Assembly: GCA_037620855.1 (NCBI GenBank)
Contig: JASJLK010000091.1
Coordinates: 13,589 to 77,588, forward strand
Length of the DNA stretch: 64,000 nucleotides
DNA from: Synechococcus sp. ChBW.bin.23
GTDB taxonomy: Bacteria; Cyanobacteriota; Cyanobacteriia; PCC-6307; Cyanobiaceae
Direction of reading: 5' to 3'
Position 1 is the stretch's first letter. Every line of letters begins with the position of its first letter. This document shows, one piece after another, positions 11,650 through 18,632 of the stretch. A program made the position numbers and the translations under genes. The notes below the pieces were generated by a model. The model ran no database searches. It had not been told where the DNA came from and worked only from the letters and a program-made list of their open reading frames with translations.

Positions 11650-12114
11650 ATGCTTCCTGGGTCGATCGAAAGTCCTGTTTATGTTGCTGAGGACGCCTCA
11701 ATATCCGCAACAGATGTTGACACGGTAATGGCTCAATCAGTTGCGTTAGTTGCTATCGATGATGTTCAAAAATCCTTGAATCGATCCAGAGCATCTGTTT
11801 ATAGATATACCAATACTGACTCCCGCAATTTAAATCCTCCTTTTAACCTCAAAAAGTTAAATCCTGAATTCCGAAGCGATCAAAAAGATCCTCTTCTATT
11901 TCATCCAAACGAAGTTGCGCGTTTCGCCAAGGATGTATTGAGAATTAAGGAGGTCACAGTTGAAGTTCTCAATTCTCCATCGACAGCAACTCAGCAAGTT
12001 TTAGGAGCCATTCTCGAGGAGTTGCGCCAGATTAGAACTCACCTTGAAGACCTTCCTGCAGCGCCGTCTGACCTTGATGCCCGTCGCGATCGACAAGAAC
12101 GTCCAGCCGCTTAA
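11650..12114 (+). CDS. Cyanobacterial protein with AlpA/excisionase-like HTH
   Basis: VAIDDVQKSLNRSRASVYRY resembles the AlpA/Xis wHTH; coding region looks AT-richer than its neighbours. Confidence 0.65.
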   Translation: MLPGSIESPVYVAEDASISATDVDTVMAQSVALVAIDDVQKSLNRSRASVYRYTNTDSRNLNPPFNLKKLNPEFRSDQKDPLLFHPNEVARFAKDVLRIKEVTVEVLNSPSTATQQVLGAILEELRQIRTHLEDLPAAPSDLDARRDRQERPAA

Positions 12115-12926: not shown

Positions 12927-13032
12927 GGCCTCAGGGAGCTGAATCAAGCTTTTCTGGGAAAGATCTGTGATTGAGGCGCTATTGAGGCCTTACTTCTTGT
13001 AAGTTGGTTCGCGCCTAGATTGTGAACGACCC

Positions 13033-13392
13033 GTGCCCACCATCCGTTTTGAGCAGGAAGGCCAACAGGTCGGTTGCATCGAAGGAGCGAATTTACGCAA
13101 AGCAGCCCTTTCATCCGGGATCAACCCTTACAAAGGTCTGAATAACCTCAATAACTGCGGCGGGGTTGGCCAGTGCGGAACCTGCGTGATCGAGGTTATT
13201 GAAGGAGCCCAGAACCTCTCCCCCCGTAGCGATGTTGAAGAGGTGTACCTCTCCGACCGCCCTGCGAACTTTCGCTTGAGCTGCCGCACCAGCGTGAACG
13301 GCGATGTGACCATTAAGACTCGCCCTGACGAAGGGGTTGGTAAGGGTTCAAACAGCCTGCTCGGTGCTGTGAAGAATTTGTTTGGACGTTGA
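13033..13392 (+). CDS. 2Fe-2S ferredoxin-like protein
   Basis: CGGVGQCGTC...RLSC cluster ligands; GTG start. Confidence 0.9.
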   Translation: MPTIRFEQEGQQVGCIEGANLRKAALSSGINPYKGLNNLNNCGGVGQCGTCVIEVIEGAQNLSPRSDVEEVYLSDRPANFRLSCRTSVNGDVTIKTRPDEGVGKGSNSLLGAVKNLFGR

Positions 13393-13757
13393 GCTTGGCT
13401 CAAACCATCAAGGTTTACAGCTACTCCAGATGTTCAACTTGCCGTAGGGCCCTGGCATGGCTGGATGCCAACAATTTGGCTTATGAGGTCGTTGACATCA
13501 CAAAAGCTCCTCCTTCAAAAGAGATCCTTTTGCTTGCTTTCAAGCGGTTGGACCGCCGTCAACTTCTCTTCAACACCAGTGGCCAGAGCTACCGAGCCCT
13601 GGGAGCAGATGTTGTTAAAGCGATGAATGACGATGACGCACTGGCTGCGTTGGCTGCAGATGGGCGTTTGATCAAACGCCCTTTTGTTGCATTGCCCAGC
13701 GGCGATTTTTTGGTTGGATTCAAGCCCGAGGATTGGAACCAGGCTCTTTTGGGTTGA
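13389..13757 (+). CDS. ArsC/Spx/MgsR-family thioredoxin-fold protein
   Basis: CSTC (CxxC), NTSGQSYR, LIKRP; 4-nt overlap with the ferredoxin stop. Confidence 0.85.
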   Translation: MSLAQTIKVYSYSRCSTCRRALAWLDANNLAYEVVDITKAPPSKEILLLAFKRLDRRQLLFNTSGQSYRALGADVVKAMNDDDALAALAADGRLIKRPFVALPSGDFLVGFKPEDWNQALLG

Positions 13758-15225
13758 AATTGAGCCCATCGAGCTGGGTAATCAGTTCGTCCACGCCACC
13801 TTGAATGTGAAGTTGGAGCATGCTGGTGCGCTTGAAGTCTTCGAGAAACGCCACTAATAATTCTTGGCTTCGTTCCAGCACGACGCCTTGTTCGAGCGTG
13901 CGAGCGAGCTCCTCCCAAAAACGATCGAGCGTTTGAATCCCAAGATCTTCGAGAACTTGATCTTTCTGGCCAAGTTGGTCGCCCGCACTCTTTGAGAGCC
14001 CCAACAGCGAATCCACCATTCTTGTAGCGAGCTGACGGCTCAGTTCGGATTCTGCCTTTTGCACTCCAGGCAGCTCCCTTAGCGGTGCCGGTAAGACCAG
14101 ACCATCCAGATTCCGCTGAAGAGTGTGGCCGAATAGCGCCACAAGTTGTGGCCGCAGCCCTGGCCCCACTTGCGTGAGGATGAGAGGGAGCCAGAGCCGT
14201 AGTAGCTCCGCGAGTTCCCTTTCTTCGCTGCTGTCAACAGATTGATGACTACAAAGCCGGAGAATCCTGTTGGGAAGATTCGGCGAGCGCACGATGCCCT
14301 GCATTGCATCCAGAACACGCAGCGTGATCACTTCAAATAATTCGAGGGCCAGGACCGCGACAACGCCGCGACTGACGGCTGCTCGAAGGGGCTCAAGATT
14401 GAGAAGCTGAGCGCGGGATAGCCGCTCTGTGACTGGAACAACTCGCAATAGACGCCAAAATGGAATTAACAGCGGTAGGTCAATCCAACGTCTGAGTAAG
14501 GCGTCTCTCCACGCAATCGCCGGAAATCGACGTTTCAGTCGAAGCGTTCGAACCAGGATGTCCAGTAGAAACAGGATTTGAAAAGGAATGTCGATCCGCC
14601 AGGAAAGGTCGATTGGCATTCCGTTTTCATCAATTCCGCGCGAGTAATTGGTCTCCGCTAGCGGAAGAATTTTGGTGTTCCAAAACTGACGCTCTTGGCC
14701 CCAGTCGTGCTTGTTCAAGTAGCGGTCGCTGAGGAGATAGGCCGCTGCTTGTTTGGCTGAATCCATCTCAGCTCTCCCTCTGAGACGGTTCTTGAGCTTT
14801 TCGAATGCGCCTACATTTCCAGAGCTGATGAACGGGTTCTCATCGACTAACTGGCTATTCCTAACCACCATCTCAAGCCGCAATTGTCGAGCGGCTTGAC
14901 TGTTGATGCCCAACTTTGAAGCGGTGGTCTCGAGTCTGCGGAAGTGCTCGACGTAGGACATCGTGTCACGGTGAACTTCGATGCCCTTCAGCGGGTCGTA
15001 GATGGGTGTGATGTCCGGCAGCCACGGCAGTGGCAAGGCCAAGTTGATCGATGGAAGGGGATAGAGCGTTCTTTGCAGCCAGAAATTTCGCAACGGAATA
15101 TAGGTGACATCGAAAATCACCCAGATCAGATTGAGCGCTGCAATCAGGGCTAAGACCTGATCCCAGCGATTCCAGAACAATTGGATGGTGCGGGGTTTCA
15201 TGCCCTGCCAGCGGGGTCGGACCAT
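13720..15225 (-). CDS. Membrane protein with voltage-sensor-like S1-S4 module and long helical C-terminus
   Basis: 501 aa ORF; S1 WDQVLALIAALNLIWVIFD, S2 IDIPFQILFLLDILVR, S3 WIDLPLLIP, S4 WRLLRVVPVTERLSR. The CDS is solid; the function is inferred. Confidence 0.75.
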   Translation of the reverse strand: MVRPRWQGMKPRTIQLFWNRWDQVLALIAALNLIWVIFDVTYIPLRNFWLQRTLYPLPSINLALPLPWLPDITPIYDPLKGIEVHRDTMSYVEHFRRLETTASKLGINSQAARQLRLEMVVRNSQLVDENPFISSGNVGAFEKLKNRLRGRAEMDSAKQAAAYLLSDRYLNKHDWGQERQFWNTKILPLAETNYSRGIDENGMPIDLSWRIDIPFQILFLLDILVRTLRLKRRFPAIAWRDALLRRWIDLPLLIPFWRLLRVVPVTERLSRAQLLNLEPLRAAVSRGVVAVLALELFEVITLRVLDAMQGIVRSPNLPNRILRLCSHQSVDSSEERELAELLRLWLPLILTQVGPGLRPQLVALFGHTLQRNLDGLVLPAPLRELPGVQKAESELSRQLATRMVDSLLGLSKSAGDQLGQKDQVLEDLGIQTLDRFWEELARTLEQGVVLERSQELLVAFLEDFKRTSMLQLHIQGGVDELITQLDGLNFNPKEPGSNPRA

Positions 15226-15261: not shown

Positions 15262-16050
15262 TTGATCGCGCCTATCCTGCGTTTCAGGATTGAAGCAAGG
15301 TTCCTGTTGGTAGACAAGCAACACAACAGTCGTTCTGACGACGACCGGCCCAACAGCAGCGAGACTCTTCAGGAGGGCAATAAGGATCTAAAAAAAGAAC
15401 GAGGTTCTGGAAATCCGCTCTGGGATTTTTGGGGCCCGTTGTTGTTCACGATGGCTCTCTATTTCGGGATTCGTCACTATTTGGCAGAGGCACGCTTCAT
15501 TCCCTCAGGCTCGATGCTCCCTGGCTTGCAGATCCAAGATCGTCTGCTTGTCGAGAAGCTCACCTATCGCGGCCGCAAGCCTCGGCGGGGAGAAATTGTC
15601 GTGTTCAATTCCCCCTATGCCTTTGATCCTGCACTGCGCTCAACAACGTCGCCCCCACCTTTTCGATGCGTTCTCGCGAATATCCCTTTGATTGGGTTAA
15701 TTCCAGGCGTCAGTCATCAAGCTTGTGATGCCTACATCAAACGCGTTGTGGCTGTGGCGGGTGATCAGGTGGTGGTGAACCCTCGAGGAGAGGTGCGTGT
15801 GAACGGTGTTGATCTCGACGAATCGTATGTGACCAATTACTGCCCTCTGGACAAGCGGGGGATGAGCCTTTGCCGCACCCTGAATGCCACGGTCCCGGAG
15901 GGACGTGTTCTCGTTCTTGGTGACAACCGCAGTAACAGCTGGGATGGTCGCTACTGGCCGGGTGGAGCCTTCCTTCCTGAAGATCAGATTATTGGTCGAG
16001 CGGTTTGGCGTTTCTGGCCATTTAATCGACTTGGTTCGTTGGGATCCTGA
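15262..16050 (+). CDS. lepB: Signal peptidase I
   Basis: PSGSMLP (Ser), YIKRVV (Lys), GDNRSNSWDGR; start uncertain. Confidence 0.93.
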   Translation: MIAPILRFRIEARFLLVDKQHNSRSDDDRPNSSETLQEGNKDLKKERGSGNPLWDFWGPLLFTMALYFGIRHYLAEARFIPSGSMLPGLQIQDRLLVEKLTYRGRKPRRGEIVVFNSPYAFDPALRSTTSPPPFRCVLANIPLIGLIPGVSHQACDAYIKRVVAVAGDQVVVNPRGEVRVNGVDLDESYVTNYCPLDKRGMSLCRTLNATVPEGRVLVLGDNRSNSWDGRYWPGGAFLPEDQIIGRAVWRFWPFNRLGSLGS

Positions 16051-17299
16051 GTCCACAACTCACTACTTGCCCGCGCATGCGCACGCCTAGCCAAGGCTGG
16101 TTGGCAGCTTTAGGGGCGTGAGGAGCCTCGCGGGTTTGATCCCATGTTTGGTCAGGATCAAAAAGCAACCAGCGATTGCTTCCGAGGCTCAGTCGTTCTT
16201 CGTCCTGTCCAAGCAACCGTGCCGGACCGAAACTGAGCGCTTGCCAGAGTTGGTTCACACTCCATCCCAAATCGATCACGAGACGTTGCCAGAGCGTGGG
16301 CAGCACTAAGTGGTGACCGGACAAGCCTTTTGGACGTTGATCGGGAGGCAAAAGACACTCTTCATCGTCGAGAGGAATGCCATGAACAGCAACGGCGTTG
16401 ATCTTTCCTTCTCCTAGGGCCTGAATTAAGGCCAGGCGATCGCTTTGCCCACCAATGGAAGGGGTGACAAACCAATGGGTCTCTTCAGCTGTTTGGCTAG
16501 ATCGATCCTGCACGAGGTGCCACCAGCTCACAGTGGCCAGTGGAGATGACGTTGCATGGCTCAACATGTGCACTCCATCAGCAGTGGAGAGATTCATGAG
16601 CACAAGCTTGCGATTGATGTGGCGTCGCTGCAGTTCCAGGAGCTGCCCGATGGGCAGCGTTTCGCTGATGATTGGATCTGCAGGCCATCCGGCTCGTAGT
16701 GTTTCTACGCCTTCCCGGATCATTCCGTCTCCGCGCAGGTTGGAGTCATTGGGTGCAATCAGCACTGGGACTCCAGCCATTTCACCGAGAAGTAGGGCGC
16801 GGTTGATGAGGTTGGCAGACGGCATCTGCTCTCCAGCACACAGACCGATGGCACCTGCTTCAATCAGATCGGCGTGGAGGCTGAGGCGTTCTCCTTCACC
16901 GCGATGGGTGAAGCTTCCCCATAAATGAACTTTGAGATCGCAATCGCTCGGCTGGAATCCCTTTAAGCGTTCTGGGCTGTCCCGTTCCGATTCACCGTTT
17001 GGAAGTAGTGCTAGCTGCCCATAACCAGCTCGCCCTGCGGCGTTGATGAGGGTTTTGAGAGTCTCCCCACTTCCTGTAAATGGACTGGGAAGGCTTGAAT
17101 GTGGGTCAACAAGGCATGGGGCGAGAAGTTGCTGGGCCCGGTTTTGGCCCGAAACACCTCTCTCAGCAGCTCGCTGCCTTGCCTCTTCACCAAGGGCGAT
17201 AAGACGATCATCTTCAAAGAGAGCAGCACTTCCTACTTGGAGCGGCTGATCGCTGGCGACTAGAACCTGCACAGGGTCGAGCAGCATCGTCTCAGTCAT
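16022..17299 (-). CDS. Dihydroorotase-like protein, probably catalytically inactive (PyrC'-type)
   Basis: Amidohydrolase-fold pattern (PCLVDPH, AAGRAGY, LSFGPARLLG), but the metal ligands are degenerate. Confidence 0.82.
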   Translation of the reverse strand: MTETMLLDPVQVLVASDQPLQVGSAALFEDDRLIALGEEARQRAAERGVSGQNRAQQLLAPCLVDPHSSLPSPFTGSGETLKTLINAAGRAGYGQLALLPNGESERDSPERLKGFQPSDCDLKVHLWGSFTHRGEGERLSLHADLIEAGAIGLCAGEQMPSANLINRALLLGEMAGVPVLIAPNDSNLRGDGMIREGVETLRAGWPADPIISETLPIGQLLELQRRHINRKLVLMNLSTADGVHMLSHATSSPLATVSWWHLVQDRSSQTAEETHWFVTPSIGGQSDRLALIQALGEGKINAVAVHGIPLDDEECLLPPDQRPKGLSGHHLVLPTLWQRLVIDLGWSVNQLWQALSFGPARLLGQDEERLSLGSNRWLLFDPDQTWDQTREAPHAPKAANQPWLGVRMRGQVVSCGLRIPTNQVD

Positions 17300-17303
17300 G
17301 GGT

Positions 17304-18632
17304 TCACAGTGCTCCCGCTGCTGTTCGATCGAGAACCCCACCGAGGTGGGATGTGAGATTCAGGCAACTCACCACTGCAGGTTGGCTGGAATCTTCTGGC
17401 ATGTCGATCACCGTGACGCCACCGTTGCCTTGTTTCACGGACCAAATGTCCTTGGGCGCAAGGCCTAAGAGGTGACACAGGATTGTTTTGTTCACTGCAT
17501 CATGCGCCACAACTAAGGCTGTCTCTGACGGATCGAGGCCATCGGCGATGCTGTTCCAACACTCCACAGATCGTTCCCAAACGTCTTGAATCGTTTCGCC
17601 TTCGGGCATTTGTACTGTTTCGGGAGCGTCCTTCCAGGCTTGAAGTAACTCCTCCCAACCCTCACGAATTTCTGATTCGAGTTTCCCCTCCCAAAGCCCG
17701 TGACCGATTTCCATCAGACCATCAGTCACAGTGAGCGAGACGCCTGAATGCGATTTCAAAATCCCCTCAGCTGTTTCTCGTGGGCGAGACATAGAGCTGC
17801 TGTAGGCCCGATTCAGAGTCACACCCTCGAGGAAGGAGCGCGCAGCCTCTGCTTGGGCATGGCCGTTGCTGTTGAGTGGAATATCAATCTGTCCCTGGAA
17901 CCGTCCCTGCCGGTTCCAATCTGTTTCACCGTGGCGGACAAGGATCAGACGTGCCTTAGAGCCTTTGGCTGGCAGCGCAGGCTCTAGGTGGGCAATGCTG
18001 TTTAAGCATTCGATCTGTACTTGGTAACCATTCGGTCCTGGGGAGAGGTTGAACACCGACAACGATGCGTTGTCGAGGCGCAGACGCCTGAAACCTCCTT
18101 GAGGCTCGCCCAACAACACCAGAATTAAGCAGCGGAGAATAGCGTTGTGACCTACTACCAGGACGGTGTCGTCGCCAGTCACTGGATGCCGATCGATTAT
18201 GCATTTCAAGAAGGCCCGCGCCTGAACCATTAACTCGGTCACAGGTTGGTAACGCGTGCCGTCAGAGCGGGTGAGTTCTAGGGCTTCCGGTCGTTGACGC
18301 CAGGTGGCATAGCCCTCTGGATCCTTGATCGCCCGTTCATCGGCTGTTAGTCCGCTCCAGGGCTCAAGATCAATCTCCAGCAGTCCGTCATCTAGGACGG
18401 GGGCCAGCCCGTCTTGACGCACGCTCAGCACTCCGGCTGTGGTGGCGGCAGCACGTTGTAGAGGTGAGCTGTAGGCCGCATCAATCTGCACGTCGGCCAA
18501 GGCCACGCCCATGCGTCGCGCTTGGTCTTCGCCGGTCGCTGTGAGTGTTGATAGATCATTGCGCCCCTGAATGCGGCGCTCAACGTTGAAGCTGCTCAGG
18601 CCGTGGCGTAGCAGGAGGAGACGCAGTGACAC
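17304..18632 (-). CDS. Tandem-domain histidine phosphatase (phosphoglycerate mutase-like)
   Basis: Two RHG motifs (LRHGLS, VRHGET) and two V(G/A)H motifs; GTG start at 18632. Confidence 0.9.
   Translation of the reverse strand: MSLRLLLLRHGLSSFNVERRIQGRNDLSTLTATGEDQARRMGVALADVQIDAAYSSPLQRAAATTAGVLSVRQDGLAPVLDDGLLEIDLEPWSGLTADERAIKDPEGYATWRQRPEALELTRSDGTRYQPVTELMVQARAFLKCIIDRHPVTGDDTVLVVGHNAILRCLILVLLGEPQGGFRRLRLDNASLSVFNLSPGPNGYQVQIECLNSIAHLEPALPAKGSKARLILVRHGETDWNRQGRFQGQIDIPLNSNGHAQAEAARSFLEGVTLNRAYSSSMSRPRETAEGILKSHSGVSLTVTDGLMEIGHGLWEGKLESEIREGWEELLQAWKDAPETVQMPEGETIQDVWERSVECWNSIADGLDPSETALVVAHDAVNKTILCHLLGLAPKDIWSVKQGNGGVTVIDMPEDSSQPAVVSCLNLTSHLGGVLDRTAAGAL

Follow-up and report, generated by a model that had tools for sequence, protein, structure and literature searches.

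A pore-less homolog of the voltage-sensor domain in cyanobacteria and spirochaetes

The gene and the segments of its product

The window analyzed here is a 64,000-nt stretch of a Synechococcus sp. ChBW.bin.23 contig (JASJLK010000091.1, positions 13,589 to 77,588), with a G+C content of ~55% and with marine Synechococcus, Prochlorococcus, and Cyanobium as its closest relatives. On its minus strand, at 13720..15225, lies an open reading frame (ORF) with an ATG start, encoding 501 amino acids (aa) and a stop: the picocyanobacterial ortholog of Synechocystis Sll0827. A sequence-only reading of the window had proposed that the product is a prokaryotic voltage sensor without a pore. This was borne out in part: with high confidence, the protein belongs to a real and ancient family of pore-less homologs of the voltage-sensor domain (HHalign probability 95–97%), but its fourth sensor helix, S4, is non-canonical, and voltage sensing by the family is unproven.

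Hydropathy on the Kyte–Doolittle (KD) scale peaks at residues 24–43 (2.1), 207–231 (1.5), 247–266 (1.3), and 282–306 (2.0). The first peak is the transmembrane (TM) core of S1 (residues 13–43; 15097..15189, minus strand like all segments of the gene), which carries N32 and D39 and is preceded by a basic N-terminus (net +4); it is helical at 13–42 in the AlphaFold2 (AF2) model, with a predicted local distance difference test score (pLDDT) of 96. After an insert of ~165 aa comes S2 (209–233; 14527..14601), with the pattern D212-x6-F219-x2-D222-x3-R226, and then, beyond a strongly basic loop (net +3.5), S3 (239–256; 14458..14511), with RRW247-x-D249-x5-P255. S2 is assigned by HHalign register and conservation, and S3 by these together with couplings to S2. 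The S4-like helix (257–272; 14410..14457), which reads R258-W/L-L-R261-[IV][IV]-P264-V-T-x-R268-L, is assigned by conservation and by couplings to S1; it lies with S3 in a single 25-aa stretch, under one shared hydropathy peak.

The ORF and the motifs singled out by the sequence-only reading are where it put them (LIAALNLI at residue 27, IDIPFQILFLLDILVR at 211, WIDLPLLIP at 247, and WRLLRVVPVTERLSR at 257), the residue numbers F219, D222, D249, R258, R261, R268, and R271 are all right, and AF2 secondary structure agrees with the insert (44–208) and helical C-terminus that it described. A first AF2 model, built from 22 close homologs, was discarded (pLDDT 64, and <50 in the S3–S4 region). The one used throughout, from 64 diverse sequences, has a pLDDT of 87 and a predicted template modeling score (pTM) of 0.65, with residues 20–280 at 88–98. 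Couplings are from mean-field direct-coupling analysis (DCA) of 342 family sequences.

Homology of S1–S3 to the voltage-sensor domain

A reference set of 120 PF00520-carrying proteins of the voltage-gated potassium channel (Kv) type was retrieved with KvAP as the query, and 117 of these were aligned for profile comparison. Against the Kv sensor, the family profile with S1 spliced to the core gave an HHalign probability of 97.0% (P 9.3e-11), with a score of 63.8 over 78 columns covering S1–S3; the core alone gave 96.2%. Reversed decoys scored 12.8–14.3, and 80 block-shuffled decoys, which retain composition and local layout, averaged 12–13 with a maximum of 28.6. When hhalign was repeated on independently built alignments, the same register was recovered at 95.1% (P 3.4e-8), and the spirochaete branch on its own matched at 95.0%. 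Pfam Ion_trans matches two of 64 members below threshold (best E 0.003), that of P0222 falling on S2–S4.

The HHalign register pairs D39 with KvAP E45, the outer acid of S1; D212 with D62, the outer acid of S2; F219 with the template's consensus Phe of the charge-transfer center; and D222, R226, D249, and P255 with D72, R76, E93, and P99. In the Kv consensus, the residues opposite F219, D222, and D249 are F, E, and D. Conservation was counted among either 79 diverse members or 352 sequences from cyanobacteria and spirochaetes. S1 has N32 in 329/352 and D39 in 321/352, with Y42 and R46 also conserved; S2 has D212 in 77 of the 79, F219 in 75, D or E at position 222 in 74, and R226 in 67, along with a conserved F215; and S3 has D or E at 249 in 76/79 and P255 in 73/79, along with R246 and W247. 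The family therefore has both a charge-transfer center (an aromatic in S2, an acid three positions on, and the Asp of S3) and outer counter-charges (D39 in S1, D212 in S2). The S1, S2, and S3 assigned by the sequence-only reading thus fall on functional positions of real sensors, conserved across the 352 sequences. The residues whose conservation it had proposed to check, F219, D222 (as D/E), D249 (as D/E), R258, and R261, are indeed conserved; R271, which it also counted in S4, is not. Taken together, the profile match, the decoys, the functional residues in the same register, and the sub-threshold Ion_trans matches demonstrate, at the level of sequence comparison, that S1–S3 share ancestry with the voltage-sensor domain in voltage-gated cation channels.

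Coevolution is consistent with a bundle of the expected kind. Among the top 50 couplings, S1–S4 pairs are enriched 15-fold (33–265, 29–265, 33–262) and S2–S3 pairs 11-fold (223–243, 219–252), and there is one S1–S2 pair (25–222); enrichments of bundle pairs range from 3- to 15-fold. These couplings support a model with the neighbor contacts expected of four bundled helices.

Absence of a pore, and a probable fifth helix

None of the 79 members has a TxGYG-like motif, and comparison of the C-terminal 225 residues with the Kv pore gives a probability of 0.06%. A single hydrophobic helix follows S4, so the S5–P–S6 pore of six-TM channels is not present. The sequence-only reading had made the same point, but was probably wrong to say that there is no S5 either: it overlooked the helix at 282–306.

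This helix 5 spans residues 278–313 (14287..14394), with a TM core at about 286–306, and is predicted by AF2 as one helix (pLDDT 78–89). Its KD hydropathy averages 1.2 over the family and reaches 2.0 in the query, its hydrophobic moment is low, and it has a conserved polar stripe of E295, E298, D/N306, and Q309. By DCA it is coupled, at its start, with S2 and S4 near their inner ends (230–283, 270–281) and, in its middle, with S3 and S1 in their outer halves (251–299, 253–302, 40–299); at its tip, residue 312 is coupled with insert residues 160, 95, 115, 207, and 69. Helix 5 probably crosses the membrane. Charge is biased in the same sense, with +4 for the N-terminus, +3.5 for the S2–S3 loop, and a family mean of −6.4 for the C-terminal domain. 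Because the helix-5 couplings and the charge bias agree, a topology of five TM helices, with insert and C-terminal domain both extracytoplasmic, is suggested with moderate strength. The C-terminal domain, through which the protein had been supposed to signal, is then doubtful as a source of signals into the cytoplasm.

The insert and the C-terminal domain

The S1–S2 insert (44–208; 14602..15096) is predicted to be a helical domain with a small beta-sheet base (AF2 pLDDT 90–98). It contains two near-invariant motifs, YDPxKGIEPHR (76–86; window 14968–15000) and NYxR (193–196; window 14638–14649), which are the most conserved parts of the family in cyanobacteria and spirochaetes alike. They are predicted to pair in this small sheet, placed at the bundle's outer mouth and adjoining the outer ends of S1 (D39, Y42, R46) and S2 (D212), an arrangement that suggests a putative ligand-binding or catalytic site there. 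The insert has no match in Pfam, the PDB, or the Kv set; sub-threshold matches to HHH_RecD2 in 7 of 64 members were treated as noise.

The C-terminal domain (314–501; 13723..14286) is predicted to form six to seven amphipathic helices (AF2 pLDDT ~70–90), with hydrophobic moments of 0.7–1.15, and is net acidic. It has no significant match to Pfam, the PDB, the Kv pore, or DUF445/YjiN. The last of these was considered on account of sub-threshold matches to DUF445 (PF04286), all within this domain, in 6 of 64 members; it was rejected, the best match having an E of 0.002 and 18.6 bits against a cutoff of 33.8, and hhalign against E. coli YjiN giving 0.4%.

Family and distribution

These proteins make up an ancient integral membrane protein family of ~440–640 aa, unnamed in Pfam and NCBIfam. 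A collection of 5.8 billion proteins yielded 631 homologs, of which the best 120 are nearly all ~500 aa long, and, where named, are all called hypothetical; a profile search of 1.84 billion cluster representatives matched 395 clusters, including full-length proteins of 420–640 aa from filamentous cyanobacteria. Searches of Pfam, NCBIfam, and PDB sequences with the query, the core profile, and the full-family profile returned no significant channel match; the best matches, to short-chain dehydrogenases and designed helical repeats, were judged spurious. In UniRef the Synechocystis salina ortholog (P0411) is named "Uridine phosphorylase." Nothing was found to support this name, which is likely a propagated misannotation.

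Relatives occur in at least 553 cyanobacterial species-representative genomes, with every major cyanobacterial order included. The most divergent branch is from Leptospirales and other Spirochaetota, represented by many independent assemblies with complete chromosomes among them, and Gloeobacterales also have members. Leptospirales and Gloeobacterales are not known to have thylakoids, so the core function is not thylakoid-specific; the sequence-only reading had named membrane or thylakoid potential as what the protein reads. The family is also kept in the reduced, 3.07-Mb genome of the N-fixing endosymbiont of the diatom Epithemia clementina (L085, 3001–4503), which hints at a core cellular role. 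Two contigs labeled Candidatus Sericytochromatia and Candidatus Gracilibacteria (L009, L031) encode homologs 52–54% identical to oscillatorian proteins. Both are probably cyanobacterial contigs placed in the wrong bins; should the Sericytochromatia one be genuine, the family would extend to non-photosynthetic relatives of cyanobacteria.

Comparison with known voltage-sensor proteins

With KvAP-type channels (PF00520, S1–S4) the family shares the homologous S1–S3, with the outer acids, Phe-x-x-acid-x3-Arg, and S3 Asp-x5-Pro in register, as well as an arginine-bearing helix after S3 and, probably, an N-terminus on the inside. Unlike them, it lacks both the S5–P–S6 pore and the selectivity filter, has the ~165-aa insert between S1 and S2 and almost no S3–S4 loop, reads RxxRxxPxxxR in S4 where they read RxxRxxRxxR, and has, after S4, one more probable TM helix and then a helical domain of ~190 aa.

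In having a sensor module without a pore, followed by an effector or extra domain after S4, it resembles Hv1, Ci-VSP, and TMEM266/HVRP1; these are eukaryotic and have no large S1–S2 ectodomain, whereas the present family is prokaryotic and has one. The S4 motif of Hv1, RxWRxxR, is found in none of the 352 sequences, Trp259 (195/352) being in another register (RWLR). Seven residues before the outer S1 acid the family has Asn in 329/352 and Asp in 4/352; we take this position and the outer acid to correspond to D112 and E119 of Hv1. With Asn at mid-S1 and the Hv1 S4 motif absent, Hv1-type proton conduction, one of the functions first proposed, appears unlikely. The C-terminal PTEN-like phosphatase and CX5R motif of voltage-sensing phosphatases (VSP) are lacking: the Pfam and NCBIfam scans found no phosphatase family, and the query has a single Cys (0.2%).

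An analogous architecture occurs in polycystins (TRPP/PKD2) and mucolipins (TRPML), which have an extracytoplasmic domain of ~200 aa between S1 and S2 and few charges in S4. They also have an S5–P–S6 pore. Their ectodomain is alpha/beta, whereas the insert here is mainly helical, and sequence similarity to these channels was not detected.

Sensor-only proteins (Hv1, VSP, TMEM266) are viewed as eukaryotic inventions. According to a 2023 review, the voltage sensors known from prokaryotes are all joined to a pore, and no pore-less ones are known (PMC10377628). The literature searched contains no report of a relationship between this family and voltage sensors. The protein is not, however, the entirely undescribed one that had been proposed: the ortholog Sll0827 had already been listed, as an uncharacterized core protein of the cyanobacterial lipid droplet, or cyanoglobule (PMC12223511). 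The family is best classed as a prokaryotic pore-less sensor protein of novel architecture, whose gene product has so far been known as a hypothetical protein in a proteomics list. Its distribution, from Leptospirales and Gloeobacterales to a diatom endosymbiont, would push the uncoupling of sensor and pore deep into bacterial evolution.

Sll0827 and the cyanoglobule fraction

Sll0827 of Synechocystis PCC 6803 matches the query over 482 collinear residues (BLASTP E 9e-79, 34% identity), with all family motifs conserved, and would offer a small, abundant, genetically tractable bacterial model. It is given as an "uncharacterized protein" of the core cyanoglobule proteome, without an Arabidopsis homolog, and makes up 5.4% of cyanoglobule protein mass in the control and 3.4% under phosphate deficiency (PMC12223511). 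The core set consists of proteins enriched over lysate, membrane pellet, and phycobilisome fractions; microscopy validation covered four cyanoglobule proteins, Sll0827 not among them (PMC12223511). Nine cyanoglobule proteins have predicted TM helices, which are not expected in a monolayer droplet, and the list also has clearly polytopic members, among them a Bax-inhibitor-1-like protein (PMC12223511).

In the searched literature Sll0827 is mentioned by this one study, and it is absent from the supplements on proximity labeling of photosystem II. It is thus known as an entry in a proteomics table, with no plant homolog and with lipid-droplet fraction data from Synechocystis alone. Homology to the voltage-sensor domain provides a first structural identity for one of the most abundant uncharacterized proteins of this fraction, and raises the question of how a polytopic, charge-filled bundle associates with a lipid droplet.

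Possible functions

If the family senses voltage, it presumably does so with few charges. The reading preferred here, tentatively and at close to an even chance, is that these proteins are low-charge sensors or modulated transducers acting on an extramembrane helical assembly. The chain would start on the inside and cross the membrane five times. Going by the residue spacing usual in the domain, F219, L33, and V262–V265 with P264 would make up a hydrophobic plug, with R258 and R261 above it and R268 below it, paired with D222 and D249. The ~165-aa insert and the ~190-aa C-terminal helical domain would lie together outside the cytoplasm, with helix 5 connecting them to S4. Such a protein might be a field sensor of low gating charge (~1–2 charges), or a sensor modulated by an ion or ligand; small displacements of S4 and helix 5 would be passed to the extramembrane helical assembly, with neither pore opening nor proton conduction. 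Because Sll0827 fractionates with cyanoglobules in Synechocystis, the output might plausibly act where the membrane meets lipid or prenylquinone droplets; this is the least secure step. A sensing role is favored because more than one phylum has kept the counter-charge system complete, along with two to three arginines: R261 is present in 350/352 sequences and R268 in 341/352, and in most members S4 carries three basic residues. Two of its arginines are in register.

A more ambitious version, in which a minimal sensor of two to three charges reads membrane energization and, via helix 5, mechanically governs cyanoglobule biogenesis or prenylquinone exchange, is improbable. If true, it would be the first prokaryotic pore-less voltage-sensor family, near-universal in cyanobacteria, and a direct electrical link of proton-motive force to lipid storage.

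Several observations weigh against the preferred reading. Some concern S4, which is degenerate, short, and tightly tethered. It is not the classical gating-charge helix that the sequence-only reading took it for: the family signature is RxxRxxPxxxR (304/352), with RxxRxxR in only 9/352; a proline (P264, 328/352) is fixed at the position of the third charge, and the hallmark of an S4, a basic residue in every third place at least three times over, is missing. Compared alone with channel S4, the helix has no detectable similarity (HHalign probability ~1%), and it enters the Kv alignment at relaxed stringency only, with a 12-residue gap at the S3–S4 loop. D249 and R261 are 11 residues apart in 287/352 sequences, leaving an S3–S4 turn of only ~4 residues, and the AF2 helices are short (S3 ~15 residues, S4 ~14). 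With so tight a turn and such short helices, a large Kv-like translation of S4 is unlikely. More generally, none of 64 members passes the gathering threshold of PF00520 Ion_trans, and channels are absent from the results of PDB profile searches. Run against the PDB with the full-length model, Foldseek produced no match with E≤0.001, and the 50 matches listed include no voltage sensor. The fold search, a check that the sequence-only reading had itself proposed, thus lends the four-helix sensor bundle no support, although coevolution does; the Foldseek result is a weak negative, because the ~110-residue sensor core is split by the 165-aa insert and then followed by 230 helical residues. The DCA itself is noisy (effective number of sequences, Neff, ~187), and insert-to-C-terminus pairs are not enriched in it as a class. 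Finally, Sll0827 is enriched in a cytoplasmic droplet fraction relative to the membrane pellet, which is difficult to reconcile with a five-TM protein whose large domains face the lumen or periplasm.

These features of S4 would be expected of a sensor-derived domain that has become insensitive to voltage, like the S1–S4 of transient receptor potential (TRP) channels, and this is a possibility to be taken seriously. The charged residues would then be a fixed core of structural salt bridges, or would line a pocket that binds an ion or a lipophilic molecule, for instance a prenylquinone, and the bundle would anchor or orient the two helical domains for lipid handling, tethering, or scaffolding at the droplet/membrane interface. 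Two in-register S4 arginines, a fixed proline, a 14-residue helix, and a short S3–S4 turn would all restrict movement, and S4 on its own has no detectable homology to channel S4; the most conserved residues are at the base of the insert by the outer mouth, as in a site for binding or catalysis; the helices of the C-terminal domain are strongly amphipathic; and Sll0827 is abundant in a prenyl-lipid-rich droplet fraction. Sensor-like domains that do not sense, however, are usually without S4 arginines and the Phe/acid pair of the charge-transfer center, whereas R261, R268, F219, D/E222, and D249 are kept here in cyanobacteria and spirochaetes; nor was any ligand- or lipid-binding domain detected in the Pfam and PDB searches.

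Ion conduction without a pore domain, whether by an Hv1-like path through the sensor, by an omega-type path at the Pro, Ser, or Thr that stands in for the third arginine, or by an oligomeric pore of helix 5 (E295-x-x-E298), is decidedly unlikely. Replacement of an S4 arginine at the gating pore by a small residue gives omega currents in channels (PMC13095418); in this family that arginine is missing by nature, acidic residues form a conserved stripe within hydrophobic helix 5, and a pore domain is absent, as it is from Hv1. Against this, the Hv1 signature is missing and mid-S1 has Asn rather than the proton-selectivity Asp, the bulky hydrophobics around P264 (I/V, I/V, V) would seal the constriction, there is no evidence of oligomerization, and Hv channels are unreported in prokaryotes (PMC10377628).

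That the sensor likeness is convergence, or an artifact of TM-helix composition in an unrelated fold, is hardly credible: Pfam, NCBIfam, and the PDB offer no match above threshold and Foldseek only generic long-helix proteins, but the profile match is far above composition-preserving decoys and was obtained again with a second tool on independently built alignments and with the spirochaete subfamily by itself, seven functional positions that are conserved line up in the same register across three helices, and coevolution supports the expected neighbor contacts.

Transcription and genomic neighborhood

Metatranscriptome contigs from four marine runs cover the 501-aa gene at 95–99% identity, and in three of the four their coverage is essentially limited to the gene body; the gene is therefore transcribed in situ in the sea by close relatives. 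One metatranscriptome contig (X26; 2.76 kb, depth 44) is unbroken over window 13000–14766, taking in the ferredoxin and ArsC-like genes and, of the 501-aa gene in the opposite orientation, the two-thirds toward its 3′ end. It represents either read-through giving antisense RNA or carry-over of DNA.

The gene shares 38 bp at its 3′ end (window 13720–13757) with a convergent ArsC/Spx-like gene (13389–13757, plus strand). The same 38-bp overlap is found in a distant Synechococcus genome (L004, 7469–7506), so the arrangement is conserved. The wider picocyanobacterial neighborhood, with lepB, the ArsC-like gene, a 2Fe-2S ferredoxin, and a pyrophosphatase, is conserved as well, and neighborhoods differ among picocyanobacteria, Hormoscilla, and spirochaetes. 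An operon partner or a split pore gene was rejected on this ground: with its neighborhood kept only within picocyanobacteria, the gene appears to stand alone, without a partner to supply a pore.

Two further ORFs in the window have counterparts elsewhere. One of 439 aa (16022–17341, minus strand) adjoins lepB, overlapping its 3′ end, and has no Pfam match; its syntenic counterpart in Synechococcus L004, of 421 aa, is likewise without one, making this another conserved unknown. The other, of 154 aa (11650–12114, plus strand), has no significant Pfam match and is syntenic in other Synechococcus, with a 154-aa gene in L004.

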